NCBI RefSeq assembly: GCF_036569345.1
Contig: NZ_DATCQT010000090.1
Coordinates: 4,201 to 68,200, forward strand
DNA length: 64,000 nt
Direction: 5' to 3'
Source of the DNA: Clostridium sp.
GTDB lineage: Bacteria; Bacillota; Clostridia; Clostridiales; Clostridiaceae
Position 1 is the first letter of the stretch; each line of letters opens with the position of its first letter. The position numbers were made by a program, and so were the translations under genes. The notes below the pieces were generated by a model. It saw only the letters and a program-made list of their open reading frames with translations. It ran no database searches and was not told where the DNA came from. Shown here in pieces: positions 34,303 to 45,200 of the stretch.

Positions 34303-34385
34303 ATATTTTAGGGGAAACGATGAAGTACGTTCTGCATTTGGGCACCTGGAACGTATTGAGTTTATGGTGCAACCCACCCAATCTG
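34303..34385 (+). ncRNA. Cyclic di-GMP class II riboswitch
   Basis: ggaaacgatgaa-tacgttc..gggcacctg-gaacgta-ttgagtt..gtgcaacc matches class II consensus; gcac/gtgc pseudoknot; followed by a terminator. Confidence 0.85.
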
Positions 34386-34407
34386 TGTAAACAGGTTGGT
34401 TTTTTTT
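34378..34407 (+). terminator. Riboswitch expression-platform terminator
   Basis: ccaatctgt-gtaa-acaggttgg followed by T8. Confidence 0.8.
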
Positions 34408-38439: not shown

Positions 38440-40140
38440 CTAATTAATTTCAAAAGTGAAATAATATCCATTTTTAATGCCTTTGCCATTTATGCTTAGA
38501 ACTTTCTCACTAATATAAACGACATATTGCTCACCTATTTCAAATTTATTTATTGGAATTATAGTTATTACTGTTCCATTACAATATACGTTAAAATCAA
38601 TCGAGTTCCCTTTTGAATCTTTCATGGAAATATTATTAGTAGTAACAGTTTTCTCATCAATTGTTTGGTTTAATTTAATGTCCCATTTTTTACTAGTATC
38701 TTTAGTTGATAAAAATGGACTATCTGTTAGTGACGGAAATTTACTTCGTGCTATATTATCTTGAATTGATTTTAAAATAGACTCTAATTTAGTTTGCAAT
38801 GTAGTCTTATCCCCACCACTCTTCAAATCACTTACAACAGCTAAAGCGACCTTGTAATTTCCCATAGTTGGTAATAGATATACCGTAGCTGTAAGGCTAG
38901 TAGCATTAACTATTTTTTGATACTCTACCTGTGTTTCATTAGTAATGTCATTTTGTACTAAATCTAATCTAAAAGTTAAAGCTGTTCTATTTTCACCAGT
39001 TGGCAAAGCATTTACTAAAACGCTAGCCGAGTCAACATCTACTTGCAATTTAGAGGTTTCTGCTTTAACTACTGCGTTCGTTGCAACTGCTAAATCATCA
39101 TCTATTACATATAAAGTCGTATGAGAAGTTGTGCTCATAATAGGTGGACTAATTGTTGTACGTTCATAATTTGATGAAATAGTTGCTACGTCATTGTAAT
39201 CATAGCCAACAGCAATATGCTCTGCTGGGTTAAGAGCTTTACCGAAATAATTCATTAACTCCCCATCTGATACTGCAGCTCCTGAAGAAAATTCTACAGT
39301 TGGTTCAGCAATGGTCCATCCGTAGTTAGGAAAGTAAACTTCTGCCCACATATGGAGCAATTGTGTTAAATCAACCGAGGTGCTATCACCAGGTTGCCAA
39401 TTTCTATATCCACTTACTGTTCTAGAAGGAATTCCACTTGCTCTACACAAAGCAACAAATAACTTAGAATAGTCTTCGCATACACCTTGTTTATAAGTCA
39501 ATGCACTTAAAGCACCTTTGTTCGCATATTTTGGGTCTAAGTTATATGTCATACTTGTATTAACAAATCTAAATATTGCAAAAGCTTTATCATAAATATT
39601 AGTAATGCCATTGGTTAAAATCTTAGCTTTTGCCTGTATTCCTGCATTATTCGTTTCCACACCAGTATCTGCTTTTAAATATTCCGTATAATTAGGTAAT
39701 CCACTATAATCAGACGTAATTGTAGACTTGTCTATATTATAGTCAATCGTACCTGTTGTAAAAGTTCTTTCAATAGTTATAGAATGTGAAGTGTTGGGTG
39801 TTATGCTACTTATTATGTCTGTTAATGTGTAGATACCATTTAAATCTTTAGTTATTGTTCCTTCAGACGCTTTAAAATCACTTACATTTATCATATAAGA
39901 AGAAAACAAATCAGTTCCTAATATTATTGTTGCTTTTGTATTTAATAAATTCCCACTATCCCCACTCTTAGTATTACTAATATCATAGGTATTGACCAGA
40001 TTATACTTTTTTAATAAATCTAATGTCGGATCTGTTGCACCAAACGTTACAGCTGTTATTCCAATAGTCAGGATTAATGTTATCGTTAGCATGAATATCA
40101 TTTTTAATATTTTTGATACTTTAAATATTTTTTTATTCAT
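38440..40140 (-). CDS. Exported transglutaminase-like protein with C-terminal Ig-like (Big_5) domain
   Basis: GVCEDYSKLFVALCRASGIPSR, HMWAEVY; C-terminal KKWDIKLNQTIDEKTV. Confidence 0.87.
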   Translation of the reverse strand: MNKKIFKVSKILKMIFMLTITLILTIGITAVTFGATDPTLDLLKKYNLVNTYDISNTKSGDSGNLLNTKATIILGTDLFSSYMINVSDFKASEGTITKDLNGIYTLTDIISSITPNTSHSITIERTFTTGTIDYNIDKSTITSDYSGLPNYTEYLKADTGVETNNAGIQAKAKILTNGITNIYDKAFAIFRFVNTSMTYNLDPKYANKGALSALTYKQGVCEDYSKLFVALCRASGIPSRTVSGYRNWQPGDSTSVDLTQLLHMWAEVYFPNYGWTIAEPTVEFSSGAAVSDGELMNYFGKALNPAEHIAVGYDYNDVATISSNYERTTISPPIMSTTSHTTLYVIDDDLAVATNAVVKAETSKLQVDVDSASVLVNALPTGENRTALTFRLDLVQNDITNETQVEYQKIVNATSLTATVYLLPTMGNYKVALAVVSDLKSGGDKTTLQTKLESILKSIQDNIARSKFPSLTDSPFLSTKDTSKKWDIKLNQTIDEKTVTTNNISMKDSKGNSIDFNVYCNGTVITIIPINKFEIGEQYVVYISEKVLSINGKGIKNGYYFTFEIN

Positions 40141-40346
40141 TTTTCCATCCCCAATTCTGTTATAGTTAATTTATTTCGATGGTTTTATTTTAGCTATTAA
40201 TTAAGTCATGAACTTTAATAATATTAGATTTGTCAATATGCTCTACATTGTTATTATTATCGTTGAAAAATTATTATTCTTTATATATATTATTTAAAAA
40301 AATATTATTTGAGATGATTAAATCCATAAGAGTATTTACCATAATT

Positions 40347-40880
40347 CTACATAAGAGCTTTCAGTTTCTCCAGTGCTTTTTTCTTAATTCTTAACAACTG
40401 ATAGTAGCTTTTATCACTATCACAGGCAACTTCCGAAAGGGGCTTTCCCAAAACATAAAACCCATCTATTATTGTACGCTCTAAGGGATCAAGAGTATCA
40501 AGAGCCACATTTAATTTTTTCACTTCCGCATAAGCTATCACTTCATCTTCTAAGGTAAATTCATAATTTCCTGCAGTATCGAAGTCTAACATATCATTGT
40601 TTGGGACTTCTCTAAAATGTTTTATTTCCCCTTTCAAAAGGGCTTTGAAATTCAATCTTATAGCATTTATACAATAGCCATTAAAGCTGTTGCTACCTAA
40701 TTTATACATCGCTATGGCTTTTACAACTGAAAGATAACCATGCTGAATTAAGTCTTCTAGTTCATATCCTGGAATGTGATATCTTGAAGCCTCTTTGATT
40801 ATTAGATACTTGAATTTTTCTATTATCTCGCCCATAGCACCATTATCTTTAGTTTTAGCCTTTTCAACTAGTTTTTCCAT
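40347..40880 (-). CDS. Alternative sigma-70 family factor (SigH-like/clostridial group-5-like)
   Basis: Region 2 YELEDLIQHGYLSVVKAI..SFNGYCINAIR; region 4 LDPLERTII..LSEVA..KKKALEKL. Confidence 0.8.
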   Translation of the reverse strand: MEKLVEKAKTKDNGAMGEIIEKFKYLIIKEASRYHIPGYELEDLIQHGYLSVVKAIAMYKLGSNSFNGYCINAIRLNFKALLKGEIKHFREVPNNDMLDFDTAGNYEFTLEDEVIAYAEVKKLNVALDTLDPLERTIIDGFYVLGKPLSEVACDSDKSYYQLLRIKKKALEKLKALM

Positions 40881-40978
40881 AATATACACCCACCTTTTTA
40901 ATTTTTAATTGGATATATTCAAAGATAATTTATTAGTGCTTGTCCTAATAACTATCTTTAAATTAATCCCTTCACATA

Positions 40979-41446
40979 TTAGCCAATGAGAGGTGTAGTT
41001 TGGTAACCAGATTTATTTAAAAGTTTTCTCAGCTTGTTAAGAACCTTCTTATTCCTTTTAACAATAGCTACATGTGAAACGTTTTCATTTTTTGCGATTT
41101 CTCTAACTGTAAGTTTTTTATAGTAAACATTTTTTATGAAATCTTGCTCTTTAGGGTTTAGTTCTACCATAGCCTCCTGTAAAATAATAAGCATTACTTT
41201 ATCGCATATAATATCTTCTATAGTTTTGTCATCTGTAAAATCTGTTCCATGCTCCATTAACCTATCAATAGAATCCTCTTTACTCGGAATAAAAGTAGTA
41301 ACCCCACTTTCTTCATTAACATCAATACGTCCAATCTTGATGTCGTTTTCCATATACCTCTCTCGTCTTGCCATTTTGTAATACTCTTTGTATATCTCCT
41401 CACTTACCTTTACTAATTCACTACCAATTTTAATAACTTTGTTCAT
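40979..41446 (-). CDS. Sigma-70 region-4 HTH protein of the type found in Firmicute integrative elements
   Basis: VSEEIYKEYYKMARRERY, LNPKEQDFI..TVREIA..SHVAIVKR; start at ATG 41446, 8 nt after GGAGG. Confidence 0.78.
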   Translation of the reverse strand: MNKVIKIGSELVKVSEEIYKEYYKMARRERYMENDIKIGRIDVNEESGVTTFIPSKEDSIDRLMEHGTDFTDDKTIEDIICDKVMLIILQEAMVELNPKEQDFIKNVYYKKLTVREIAKNENVSHVAIVKRNKKVLNKLRKLLNKSGYQTTPLIG

Positions 41447-41493
41447 TTTCATATCCTCCTTTGATTGTTTTGAGAGTTTTTTACCTGAGCAGC

Positions 41494-41595
41494 AAAAAAA
41501 AATAGCCAGGCAACAGCTAAAATTAATTAGCTGTTGTCCGGCTATTTGGTCACTCATGGTGCCATTGCTAGTCACTCATGGTGCCTTTGCTCGGT
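41494..41595 (-). promoter_or_regulatory. Attenuator-like leader element 2 (conserved box, 22-bp tandem repeat, terminator)
   Basis: Minus strand accgagcaaagg box, two 22-bp copies (41549-41570, 41571-41592), hairpin atagccggacaacagcta/tagctgttgcctggctat plus T-run. Confidence 0.7.
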
Positions 41596-41637
41596 ACGTT
41601 AATGTATTGTTCTTTCTGTTAACCCTAAAAATTAGAT

Positions 41638-41715
41638 AAAAAAAATAGCCAGATAACTACTTTAAATAAGTAGCTATCCGGCCATTTGGATGTTCACGTG
41701 ACTCCATTGCTCGGT
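41638..41715 (-). promoter_or_regulatory. Attenuator-like leader element 1 (conserved box plus terminator)
   Basis: Minus strand accgagcaatgg..ccaaatggccggatagctac/gtagttatctggctat plus T-run; homologous to element 2. Confidence 0.7.
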
Positions 41716-41724
41716 ATAAATGAA

Positions 41725-41880
41725 CTATCTTGTATATGTTTTTTTTATTGAACTTTTCTCTAAGTTAACTTTTGCTATCTTTCTGCAATAGGAACATTTA
41801 ATAGATATATCCCCATGTGCGTTCTCCTCCTTATCAAATAACCTATGGTCACAAATTGGACATTTTACTTGTTGAATCAT
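41725..41880 (-). CDS. 51-aa Com-like zinc-ribbon protein (missing from ORF track)
   Basis: Hand translation MIQQVKCPICDHRLFDKEENAHGDISIKCSYCRKIAKVNLEKSSIKKTYTR; two CxxC pairs; RBS aggggga. Confidence 0.8.
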   Translation of the reverse strand: MIQQVKCPICDHRLFDKEENAHGDISIKCSYCRKIAKVNLEKSSIKKTYTR

Positions 41881-41944
41881 GTAATTCCCCCTTTAACATA
41901 ATTTTAAAATTTATATTTTCATTTTTAAATTTATTTGTATCTCT

Positions 41945-41973
41945 ATTATACAACCGAACATGAGTTCGGTCAA
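41945..41973 (-). promoter_or_regulatory. SigA promoter TTGACC-N17-TATAAT with a LexA (Cheo/SOS) box in its spacer
   Basis: -10 at 41945-41950, -35 at 41968-41973; CGAAC-atga-GTTCG at 41955-41968. Confidence 0.85.
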
Positions 41974-42154
41974 TGCAATTTTACTTTAAATCCCATATAA
42001 AAAAATAGAAGTTGTTAATTACAAATACCACAAAGGTCACATAATTGTTTGATACTTATTACATATTTGTTTGTTATTATAAATACATAGGAAGTATATA
42101 AATTGATTTTTTTTAATTAGAGCCCCCCTTTAATTAAATAGAAATACAAAAAAC

Positions 42155-42192
42155 AAAAATAACTAGCTTAAATTAGCTAGTTATTTTTGGTT
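42155..42192. repeat. 38-bp palindromic direct repeat, left copy (terminator-like)
   Basis: aaaaataactagcttaaattagctagttatttttggtt; 37/38 identical to 47097-47134. Confidence 0.85.
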
Positions 42193-42226
42193 GAGAAAAC
42201 AGATATCTAGACCAGACGACCTAACT

Positions 42227-45200
42227 CTAACTCAAGGTTGAAGCCGCCTGATCACGGGCAAGGTCTTCAGAAAACTCAGTTTCAATAATATCTTCAGCAT
42301 AAATAATCATTTCACTTGCCGGTGGCGTAACTATAAAGTTTCTAAGCTCACATACTTCTTCTATAATAGGAGTTATTAGGTCATCGCAATATTTCTCTCT
42401 TTCACTACTTGCATATATATCACGAAGTCCTCTATCTGATAAAGTATTGTTTTCTGTTATTCTATCAATAACATATTCTATTTCATCTGTTGCAAGCAGA
42501 TAATCCTCAGCTATTTCTTGGAATACTTTATTAAATATTTCAAGCATAACATCTCCATCATTCTTTATAAATTCATTCATTGTTATCCCTACAATATTAC
42601 TACTAGCCATTCCAGCTAAAGATGCGCCCACCATACCTCCAACAAAAGTACCCACTCCTGGTATTGGTAAAATAAATGATCCAATAGCCGCCCCAGCATA
42701 AAACCCAGCAGATCCTCCCGCTACTCCTGCTGCAGTTACTGAAACATTTTTACACAACTGCTCTTTTGATATTCTACCAGCAATTAATCTCCCTATATCA
42801 GCAGAAGATAGTACAGTAGTTGTAGCTATTGAAGCTACAATATTTGATTTTAACATGTTTTTAGCCATTTTTTCTGTTATCACTTGACTTCCTTTTTTTT
42901 GTGTTGCCTTTGTAAGTACATTTCTCACATTACTACCTACTAATTTGTCTGTTACCTCAATGCTATTAATAAATACTGTTTTTGATAATTGTGATGTCAT
43001 TACTGAAGAACAAAATGCAACTCCAAAGGTTTTTACGCCTGCGTTAAGAGCCCTTTTAGATGCTTCCTCTGCACTTCCTCCACTTAATAAAGAAGTCGCA
43101 TATGATATTACAATTGTAATCCCCATAGCATTTCGGGCATTTACTATTCCGAGTTTTGAATCAACAATTAAAGAATCAATATTTCCGAATTTAGCTACAT
43201 TATATGCTTGCTTATAATCAAGTGAACTTGCCTTAACAAGATTTTTACCCTCTTCACCATATAATTCCGTCATCATCCTGATTGCATCATTAACTTTATC
43301 TTTTGGCACCTCTAAAATCATAGGTTTACCTGTGTTCTGATCAATATATTTATATTCTCCATTTTGAAGGCAATTAAATTTTAGAGCTGAATAATCTTTG
43401 CAAAATTTAGTTTGAATTAATTGACCATTCACTAATCTATCTGCACCATGTATGGCATTATTTGTGCCTAACCATTTTGCATTCTTAAATTTCAATAAAT
43501 CTGAAACATGGTCCGCATATTCAGCTGCATTACCCTGTCCTTGACTACCAAAGAAAGTACCAAAGTTTTTAGTAATATTAGCAGTACTAGCAATATTGGA
43601 TGCCTGAGTTCCAAACTTAATAGCTTTGTCTGTTGCTTCAAACTTATTTTTACCTTTTTTAATTTTGCAATTAACAAATTCATATTTTACTAATTCCGGG
43701 TAATCATTAATAATTTTATGTAACCCAATTATGTTTTTCTCTGTTGAACTCTTCCATATTAAATCATCTTCTTTTTTATCAAATTCAATAATGGTTTCAT
43801 CATATATACAATTATTGATAAGCTTAATTTTATTTAAAAACTTTTTAGTGTGATCTTTCCATTCTTTAGAATAATCATCACCCAATTCTGAAGCCTTATC
43901 AAAATACTTCTTTGCCTTAGATATATCTTTAGATATCCCTATACCATATTGATACATTAAACCAATATCCCTTAAAGCAGGTACAAACAATTTTTCAGCT
44001 GCCTTATTTATATATTCAAAAGCAATCTCATAATTAACTTCCACATAGTAATCTAATGTATGCATTAAACCGAAATAATAATATCCCTCTACTTGCTCTA
44101 GATCACATGCTCTTTTAAACAATTTAAATGCTTTTTCATTATTTATCTCTGTATGCTTCCCAAGGAAATACAATTCTCCCAGCTTTGATAATGCTAAATT
44201 ATAATTTTCCGCGCAAAGTTCATTTAAATATTCTACACCTATAGGTGCTTTATCAATAAATGTATCTATATCAACATATAGCTCTGCTATTAGATATTTG
44301 TAATACGAATTACAATCTACTCCATAGTTCAACCAATACGCTGCCTTTTGAAAATTCTGTTCACATCCATAAGCAAATCTATAACAAACCCCAATATTAG
44401 TTTTTATACTTATTGGTAGTTTGTCCTCTTGTACACTATCAATAATTAACTTATATTTAGAGAATGCTTCTGTATAATTTACATTTCTATTAATTCCTAG
44501 GAAATAAAAATTTGCAATCCAGACCTCAGATTCCACATCACCTAACTTAACACTTTCTTTAAAACATTTTTCAGCAAATGAATAATCCTTTTCACCTGTT
44601 TCACCATTATAATAAATTTCTCCAAGGATTCTGTTTGCAACTGCACTCTGTAATGAATTTAATATTTCTATAGATCTATTAATGTCTTTCTTTACATCAA
44701 TTCCAACTCTATACCTATTAGCAATTTCTATTCCAGCATAAGGATTTCCAATATCAAATTGTTGTTTAATCCACTTTATATCCTTATTTTTTAATTCTTC
44801 ACCAAATGAATTTAATATTTCTATATAATCATATCTGCAATTCGTTAAGTCATAATTATGAGGATTATTAGCAAAATCTTTGTAGAAAGTAATAATATCC
44901 TTAAGTAATAATAGGAGCTTATCTTCATTAAACACATCATTAGATATTTTTAATTTAGTACCATTTTTAAGTGTTAAATATAGATTTTTACCATCACCAT
45001 TCATATCATCTATATCTGCAAAATATACTGTGACATTTTCACCAAAATCTCTTGAATATATTCCCCAGAAAGTTAATATGCTTCCATTTTTCGCACTACC
45101 AAAAAAAGAAGATTCTGCGAATAAATAAGTTTGATCTAAAATAACATTTTTTGCATATATTTTTTTTGCCTTATTAAATTTTTCTTCATCAATATTACTT

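Follow-up and report, generated by a model that had tools for sequence, protein, structure and literature searches.

A LexA-box promoter, a Com-like zinc-ribbon gene, and a candidate antitermination leader in Clostridium, compared with a widespread, apparently undescribed phage RNA–protein module

Protein-dependent RNA antiterminators are known from several systems, including the BglG/SacY/LicT proteins with their ribonucleic antiterminator (RAT) sites, the ANTAR proteins, HutP, and PyrR. Prophage switches can also be placed under the control of the SOS repressor LexA, as in coliphage 186, through Tum, and in CTXphi, and in Clostridium perfringens the UviA–bcn system, considered here together with the TcdR/BotR/TetR sigma group, uses an ultraviolet-inducible alternative sigma factor to drive a bacteriocin gene. 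To our knowledge, Com of phage Mu is alone among proteins of its type in having been studied, and its one described role is to activate the translation of a single Mu gene. In the Bacillus thuringiensis phage GIL01, a LexA-controlled promoter, P1, is found together with the small protein gp7 (PMC4551915, PMC6182141). Mu Com binds a hairpin with a CC(N)2-3GAG sequence, in which GA is contacted and which adjoins a larger structure that the protein melts, and it activates translation, not transcription (PMC6483171). Here, these systems are compared with a cassette in a 64,000-nucleotide stretch of a Clostridium sp. contig (NZ_DATCQT010000090.1; the whole stretch is called the window), in which a promoter with a LexA box is followed by a gene for a 51-residue zinc-ribbon protein and by a leader RNA with two consecutive terminator-bearing elements, referred to as gates.

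The original prediction, that a DNA-damage-inducible RNA-binding regulator heads this cassette, is supported as a whole, and the assignment of its first gene to a putative RNA-binding regulator is strengthened because a conserved leader RNA lies directly behind the zinc-ribbon gene. In its widest form, the interpretation offered here is that Com-like proteins and the leader marked by a ACCGAGCAA box constitute an undescribed class of self-encoded RNA-binding transcription antiterminators, which would gate the early operon (a sigma-region-4 regulator, then replication genes) of many temperate Firmicute phages, including abundant human-gut lineages, and which in some lineages, including that of the window, would have been wired to the host LexA and domesticated for a chromosomal sigma cascade; this wide form is put forward tentatively, as a serious possibility that falls somewhat short of probable. 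The promoter, the zinc-ribbon open reading frame (ORF), the gates, and the downstream operon all lie on the minus strand of the window, and the head of the cassette comprises the following features:

41945-41973, minus strand: SigA-type promoter TTGACC-17-TATAAT, 11 of 12 consensus matches
41955-41968, palindrome, no strand: LexA (Cheo/SOS) box CGAACTCATGTTCG, a perfect CGAAC-N4-GTTCG overlapping the -35 hexamer and the spacer
41887-41894, minus strand: ribosome site AAAGGGGG, 6 nt 5' of the ATG at 41880
41725-41880, minus strand: 51-residue Com-like four-cysteine zinc-ribbon gene, peptide MIQQVKCPICDHRLFDKEENAHGDISIKCSYCRKIAKVNLEKSSIKKTYTR, two CxxC pairs
41635-41719, minus strand: gate 1, leader plus terminator, 84.8 bits with covariance model R1, also from terminator scan and folding
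41715-41707, minus strand: ACCGAGCAA box of gate 1
41705-41688, minus strand: P1 hairpin of gate 1
41687-41643, minus strand: terminator stem of gate 1, followed by a U-run at 41642-41635
41714-41709 (CCG.GC) with 41682-41678 (GCCGG), minus strand: candidate antiterminator helix of gate 1
41492-41600, minus strand: gate 2, of the same architecture, 84.3 bits with R1 for 41492-41577, terminator stem and U-run reaching to 41492

In gate 1, the CCGAGC core of the box is located 13 nt from the stop codon of the zinc-ribbon gene, and the near-invariant box (UACCGAGCAA) is followed in order by a short hairpin, an AAAU linker, and a 20-bp terminator with eight U's. The hairpin has the bulged consensus GG-NNN-C...GA-N'N'N'-A-CC, with a near-invariant C...GA at the edges of the loop. 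In gate 2, 22 nt of the box/P1 segment are tandemly duplicated, with 41595-41574 copied at 41573-41552 (GAGCAAAGGCACCATGAGTGAC and TAGCAATGGCACCATGAGTGAC, respectively); the duplication is missing from the orthologous gates of two metagenomic chromosomes (L161 and L167) and of a phage-like contig (L013), and is thus a private and recent event. The number of gates differs among relatives, with two in the window, L013, and L161, three in Clostridium vincentii, and one in a further relative, L166.

The covariance model R1 was built from eight copies of the element, and structures were counted on 54 distinct leader sequences. The P1 hairpin is 98.9% paired, with three covarying pairs that each occur as three to four Watson–Crick or wobble types, and the terminator is 94.5% paired, with double-sided changes at 11 of its 16 pairs; both values are far above those of shuffled and slid controls. 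When the sequence upstream of the 3' arm of the terminator is folded on its own by unconstrained minimum free energy, the CCG.GC segment of the box pairs with GCCGG, at the base of the 5' terminator arm, in a helix that encloses the hairpin in 49 of the 54 sequences. This early fold is weak, at -4 to -12 kcal/mol in 16 listed examples, compared with -26 to -38 kcal/mol for the full element with its terminator. According to these folding models, the layout of the leader is that of protein-dependent antiterminators, in which a weak early helix is predicted to lose to the terminator unless it is held. As in the RAT- and ANTAR-type systems, a strong leader terminator would be combined with a weaker alternative helix, here a predicted one, that overlaps its 5' base, and a conserved sequence and structure that a protein could clamp lie directly 5' of it. 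The differences concern the protein, which is a 51-residue zinc ribbon devoid of CAT/PRD, ANTAR, HutP, or PyrR domains in family scans, and the arrangement, in which one transcript of a phage module carries both the leader and, immediately 5' of it, the coding sequence of the regulator, so that the system could prime itself. By analogy, the cassette may work like these systems, yet it is not a member of them. No Rfam family was found for the leader, either at the gathering threshold in the window and five other loci or in permissive mode for two leaders, and full-text literature searches returned no description of the element.

The association between this RNA and the zinc-ribbon protein extends well beyond the window. 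IMG/VR was searched with a pattern of RNA features only, which had been derived from leaders behind zinc-ribbon genes; it matched at least 113 viral stretches, and 80 of these were scored with the structure model, 72 of them reaching at least 39 bits. Of these 72 loci, 70 have a same-strand ORF that matches the zinc-ribbon profile and ends 8–217 nt upstream of the element; of the other two, L080 is truncated, and L062 has its zinc-ribbon gene at a distance of 0.8 kb, next to another copy of the element. Immediately downstream, 65 of 69 loci encode a member of a single protein family that has sigma-70 region 4 only (about 131–136 residues). Among the genomes of 60 relatives, two carry the zinc-ribbon gene, and the covariance model found the full element in these alone; apart from G028, other matches in this set, such as L032, proved to be plain terminators with neither box nor hairpin and were set aside. 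The phage module typically has an XRE-type repressor and an ImmA-like metalloprotease upstream, and farther downstream are DUF2800, an Enc34-type single-stranded DNA-binding protein, PolA, and VapE, a neighbourhood that places the zinc-ribbon gene at the head of the early operon, adjoining the immunity region, of widespread temperate Firmicute phages. The zinc-ribbon gene is therefore half of a widespread and apparently undescribed phage RNA–protein module.

Two loci have features of their own. In L164 (5577-5920), a prophage of the Clostridium tyrobutyricum type, a 75-residue ORF devoid of cysteine pairs is located between the XRE/ImmA and sigma-region-4 genes, and the terminator base GAGC...GAUAGCCGGAU is retained while the hairpin is missing. 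L049 (7698-8068), which represents a common type of gut-phage contig, has a transfer-messenger RNA gene about 6 kb from the module, which suggests that phages of this type integrate at ssrA.

The 51-residue ORF with its two CxxC pairs and its ribosome site, which the original prediction had recognized, is found at 41880-41725 and is almost certainly a real gene. Its description as unannotated holds for the ORF track available at the time but not for public data, in which the identical 51-residue product is already present in the protein collection (P0001). The conservation of the ORF, which had been named as a check, is borne out by purifying selection: the ratios of nonsynonymous to synonymous substitution rates (dN/dS; Nei–Gojobori) are 0.08 for the window and L161, 0.16 for the window and L013, and 0.13 for L161 and L013. 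The ribosome site is also kept in L161, L166, L167, and L013. With a profile built from six homologues, 692 representative clusters are retrieved at a cut-off of E<=1e-3 and 63 at one of E<=1e-10, and most of them measure 41–110 residues. A word-index protein search returned two close homologues only, a first viral scan with the single peptide as the query found no homologue, and tblastn of a common family member matched no plasmid. Across 22 diverse members, the four cysteines, one arginine, and one lysine are invariant, and the family conforms to the pattern C-P-x-C-x2-R-(L/A)-(F/L)-D...I-x-(I/L)-K-C-x2-C. AlphaFold2 models the protein as a four-stranded zinc ribbon with a mean predicted local distance difference test score of 80, and searches of the PDB by sequence and by fold returned generic zinc ribbons only (S27e, LysW, and Rpb9), none of them significant. 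Tandem double zinc ribbons of about 109 residues, with two matched stretches, occur in L067 (538-867) and in the proteins P0004, P0005, and P0013.

The likeness to Mu Com that had been proposed for this peptide stands at the level of profile comparison but does not extend to membership in the Com family. Against the Pfam family Zn_ribbon_Com (PF10122), the peptide scores 15.7 bits (E 0.01), below the gathering score of 22.9, and weak matches to this family occur in just 3 of the 22 members. Cys_rich_KTR (PF14205), the other family suggested, gives no match to the peptide at E<=0.1 and is absent from the families matched by 6 or 22 zinc-ribbon relatives; Pfam and NCBIfam scans of the peptide returned zinc-ribbon matches only, all of them below threshold. 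Profile comparison by hhalign with the Mu Com sequence (taken from AF083977) gives a probability of 86% with six sequences and 94.3% (E 1.1e-7, 32 columns) with 22, in an alignment that includes the two CxxC knuckles as well as the (L/R)LF motif, and the peptide, its family members, and Mu Com all match phrog_6417, annotated as a translational regulator. From these alignments, the protein is very probably Com-like by homology and appears as a remote Com relative outside the curated family.

The resemblance to the Com–mom system includes the RNA. Both proteins are small four-cysteine zinc ribbons with a shared C-x2-C-x2-(L/R)LF...I-x-I-(K/R)-C-x2-C core, both genes lie directly 5' of the RNA structure on which the product acts or is presumed to act, and the target, a putative one in the cassette, is in each case a short hairpin with C...GA or GAG motifs beside a larger inhibitory hairpin (PMC6483171). 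The P1 hairpin of gate 2, GGCAC-CAUGA-GUGaCC, contains CC-AU-GAG, and the box itself contains CC-GAG, resembling the Com site obtained by systematic evolution of ligands by exponential enrichment. The inhibitory hairpin of Mu masks the mom start codon and thereby controls translation, whereas the hairpins of the cassette are terminators with U-runs, the last of which stops some 45 nt short of the start codon that follows; termination well upstream of the start codon implies transcriptional control. The two systems also differ in their input, which is presumably LexA in the cassette and C, Dam, and OxyR in Mu, and in their cargo, which consists of sigma-like regulators in the cassette and a DNA-modification enzyme in Mu.

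The promoter with a palindrome in its spacer was likewise present where it had been predicted, on the minus strand. Its -35 hexamer TTGACC (41973-41968) and -10 hexamer TATAAT (41950-41945) are separated by 17 nt, and it is the top promoter-like site in a scan of 40200-42300. The first C of CGAACTCATGTTCG is shared with the -35 hexamer, and the box occupies 13 of the 17 spacer positions; its symmetry reaches 7+7 nt (ACCGAAC/GTTCGGT). Compared with the extended consensus CGAACRNRYGTTYC, the half-sites are perfect, and the N4 agrees with RNRY at three of four positions. The box is the sole match in the window at one mismatch or fewer (0.09 expected), and 9 of 100 shuffles of the window yielded one such match; in the whole genome (4.7 Mb, 30.7% guanine plus cytosine), there are two perfect CGAAC-N4-GTTCG sites and 23 GAAC-N4-GTTC cores, both counts including the cassette site. 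Upstream, the gene for a 1331-residue Sel1-repeat protein ends in its own intrinsic terminator (42154-42189, minus strand; a 15-pair stem, then a T-run), so that the SOS promoter is insulated from read-in.

The reading of CGAAC-N4-GTTCG as a LexA box is supported by the host itself, which has a single lexA (C129) and a recA (C18) and carries the same core at the recA (AGAACAAATGTTCG), uvrB (CGAACAAACGTTCA), and lexA (AGAACAAATGTTTG) promoters. These three boxes share the form GAAC-N4-GTT(C/T), and the cassette site agrees with those of recA and uvrB at each core position. Four distinct loci related to the cassette keep the box at this promoter position; the GAAC/GTTC half-sites are invariant and the N4 varies, being TCAT in the window and L166, TAGT in L161 and L169, TAAT in L167, and ATAC in L013, where the second half-site reads GTTCC. 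In a second, distant lineage, the 'Ca. Heliusvirales' phages of Lachnospiraceae, GAAC-N4-GTTC with a variable N4 lies within the TTGACA/TATAAT spacer at 10 of 10 evaluable loci, namely those with sufficient upstream sequence, one of which (L022) has TACAAT as its -10 hexamer; this promoter heads the unit that contains the zinc-ribbon homologue (39–43% identity). Judged from these sequences, control of the cassette promoter by LexA is highly likely.

Several further observations concern this class of promoter. A search for the window-type LexA promoter pattern gave no match among viral contigs, and a metagenome match (L168), which precedes a 380-residue gene, was rejected as unrelated. L102 (9015-9233 plus 60 nt upstream) is the sole general viral locus with a box (GAACATGTGTTC), placed right after TATAAT, and the zinc-ribbon homologue at this locus no longer has the first CxxC (KCAHDKK). 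In the Heliusvirales loci L014 (4600-4740), L015 (670-800), and L022 (2240-2370), transcripts from the LexA-box promoter would begin with a conserved 5' leader, about 130 nt long (caggttcgctacc...ggtcag(c/t)(c/t)tgactttcccttagctggcc), which may be a second structured RNA; L022 retains it although a 104-residue ORF between the promoter and the zinc-ribbon gene is degraded. L075 (740-898) encodes the closest viral relative of the window protein (75 bits) beside a divergent XRE repressor, and its promoter is flanked by four TTCGA-containing repeats, one of which, CGAACAAAGTATTCG, resembles a LexA box whose spacer is longer by a single base; it may point to a route from a phage operator to a LexA site, or the reverse.

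As in GIL01, 186, and CTXphi, a host LexA box in a mobile-element promoter would replace or supplement the phage repressor, SOS would directly trigger the first lytic or early gene, and the regulator that is made first is very small. The product of the cassette differs in that homology identifies it as neither an anti-repressor nor a LexA co-factor and in that it is tied to an RNA element, and no prophage is left behind the cassette of the window.

Three genes follow the gates and represent the putative output of the cassette:

40979-41446, minus strand: 155-residue sigma-70 region-4-only protein, the first gene behind the gates (Pfam Sigma70_r4, 5.4e-8)
40347-40889, minus strand: 180-residue alternative sigma factor with regions 2 and 4 (Pfam/NCBIfam sigma70-ECF, 1.4e-18)
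38440-40140, minus strand: 566-residue secreted protein with a transglutaminase core and Big_5 (Pfam Transglut_core, 2.2e-25)

The promoter scan found no promoter-like site from gate 2 to the start of the sigma-region-4 gene, which therefore depends on read-through. A 198-residue GTG-start ORF (41575-40979) was considered for this gene and rejected, as the gate-2 terminator accounts for the initial 43 codons of this ORF and the orthologues begin with MKMNK.

The scheme that we infer from the sequence combines LexA binding, RNA binding by the zinc-ribbon protein, an effect in the direction of antitermination, and a sigma cascade. In the undamaged cell, a LexA dimer on CGAAC-N4-GTTCG would cover the -35 region and the spacer and block RNA polymerase, and DNA damage would inactivate LexA and allow the promoter to fire. 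Early transcripts would mostly end at gate 1, so that only the 51-residue protein is made; this protein would then bind the leader as it is being transcribed, through the ACCGAGCAA box and the bulged hairpin, and hold the weak CCG.GC:GCCGG antiterminator, thereby blocking the terminator and letting the polymerase pass gates 1 and 2. Read-through would yield the sigma-region-4 protein and the alternative sigma factor, which presumably activate the gene for the secreted transglutaminase-like protein, the likely output of the cascade. Such a circuit would impose a threshold and a delay, acting as a filter on the SOS signal. The full sequence of LexA repression, SOS induction, antitermination, and sigma outputs seems to us somewhat probable, and for antitermination by the zinc-ribbon protein, considered separately and on the folding models, we see the chances as evenly poised.

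Several observations weigh against this scheme. The box:GCCGG helix is near-invariant, with one CG-to-UA double change (in the congeneric genome G028) and three U-G pairs, so that covariation is uninformative, and the invariance is partly imposed, since the search pattern demanded those bases. The co-occurrence of RNA and protein could stem from shared descent of one phage region and not from function, and the related prophage L164 retains a GAGC...AUAGCCGGA terminator behind its non-zinc 75-residue ORF. The score of the peptide is under the Pfam gathering score for Zn_ribbon_Com. Weak AT-rich promoter-like matches within the 5' untranslated region could allow LexA-independent transcription. 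The C. vincentii locus (L018) is devoid of the LexA box, the G028 locus (L010) has CGAAT-N4-ATTCG in the same spacer position, and a GAAC-N4-GTTC box occurs within 600 nt upstream in just 1 of 70 general viral loci. This last count indicates that LexA control is a lineage-specific input that lies outside the defining module; as read from these sequences, the input appears to have been gained repeatedly, lineage by lineage.

The alternative that survives best accepts the SOS promoter and the ORF as real but supposes that the protein activates translation in the manner of Com, counteracts a repressor, or acts together with LexA or a sigma factor; the hairpins would then just end a monocistronic unit, and the box and P1 would serve another factor or the stability of the RNA. 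It can draw on the action of Mu Com on translation (PMC6483171), on the modulation of LexA by small phage proteins such as GIL01 gp7 (PMC4551915), on the Lachnospiraceae phages, in which a plain terminator lies behind the zinc-ribbon gene and a separate TTGACA-17-TATAAT promoter comes next, and on the similar terminator base that L164 retains in the absence of a zinc ribbon. However, the hairpins of the window leave the next ribosome site and start codon uncovered and are followed by U-tracts, the sigma-region-4 gene needs read-through for want of its own promoter-like site, plain terminators would hardly account for tandem gates in two or three copies that each have a full box and P1, and wherever the upstream sequence is available, the box and P1 accompany a zinc-ribbon gene, except in L062 (0.8 kb). 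Together, these points make a role other than antitermination unlikely.

A second alternative, in which a phage-type repressor (CI/XRE-like) encoded elsewhere uses the palindrome as its operator and the likeness of the palindrome to an SOS box is convergent or incidental, is more doubtful still. Close relatives of the module are controlled by adjoining XRE repressors, the TTCGA repeats around the L075 promoter (CGAACAAAGTATTCG) have a spacing that is wrong for LexA, and the G028 palindrome occupies the same spacer position. However, the cassette has no neighbouring repressor gene in the window, L161, or L166; the site equals the host recA and uvrB boxes at each core position, the GAAC/GTTC half-sites stay constant while N4 changes in four distinct related loci, and an independent phage lineage places the box identically. 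We therefore regard an operator of this kind as very unlikely, and LexA as the probable regulator of the promoter.

In the chromosome, the cassette has the appearance of a domesticated phage switch, with the host LexA in the place of the repressor. No integrase, repressor, replication, or structural genes were found near it. The window and the phage-like contig L013 are homologous from precisely the -35 hexamer to a point just past gate 2, and the sigma-region-4 proteins of the two are only 29% identical over 86 residues; the portable unit thus consists of the promoter, the zinc-ribbon gene, and the gates, about 480 bp. In the metagenomic chromosome L161, the zinc-ribbon and sigma-region-4 proteins are 96% and 80% identical to those of the window, the ABC-transporter neighbours are the same, and the transglutaminase-like gene is in the same position; L167 has the same operon layout. 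L166 (Ga0209123_1000076; 0–900 nt past the LexA-box promoter) shares the promoter and the zinc-ribbon gene and has one gate followed directly by the 180-residue sigma gene, with neither a second gate nor a sigma-region-4 gene.

That the cassette is a decaying prophage remnant, inherited debris with no present role in the host, would agree with the lack of integrase, structural, and replication genes nearby, with the presence of the module in only 1 of 29 congeneric species genomes, and with the private 22-nt duplication in gate 2, but the dN/dS values of 0.08–0.16, the retention of the whole operon at about 80–96% protein identity in the separate chromosomes L161 and L167, and the tidy one-gate variant in L166 render it most improbable. 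Ribosome-mediated attenuation at the gate was also considered, in view of the 13 nt between the stop codon and the CCGAGC core, and larger gaps in several loci make it less likely.

With antitermination under LexA control as the preferred interpretation, the cassette also invites comparison with UviA–bcn, as in both a clostridial DNA-damage signal would be passed via a small alternative sigma factor to a gene for a secreted protein. The sigma factor of the cassette is a generic sigma-70/ECF-type match, and the cassette differs in adding a region-4-only protein and a zinc-ribbon/terminator gate and in having a transglutaminase-like output. If the Firmicute relatives of Com do control terminators, they would form a new protein class among the few RNA-binding antiterminators and would explain a conserved, unannotated RNA-plus-peptide module located where many gut and clostridial prophages decide between lysis and lysogeny. 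The window provides the simplest test bed, with one LexA box, one 51-residue protein, two gates, two sigma-like genes, and one secreted enzyme, to which the natural variants with one gate (L166) or three gates (C. vincentii) can be added, and the cassette would illustrate the capture of a phage switch by the host SOS regulon. Elsewhere in the window, a c-di-GMP-II riboswitch (Rfam RF01786, 68.5 bits) is located at 34304-34387 on the plus strand.

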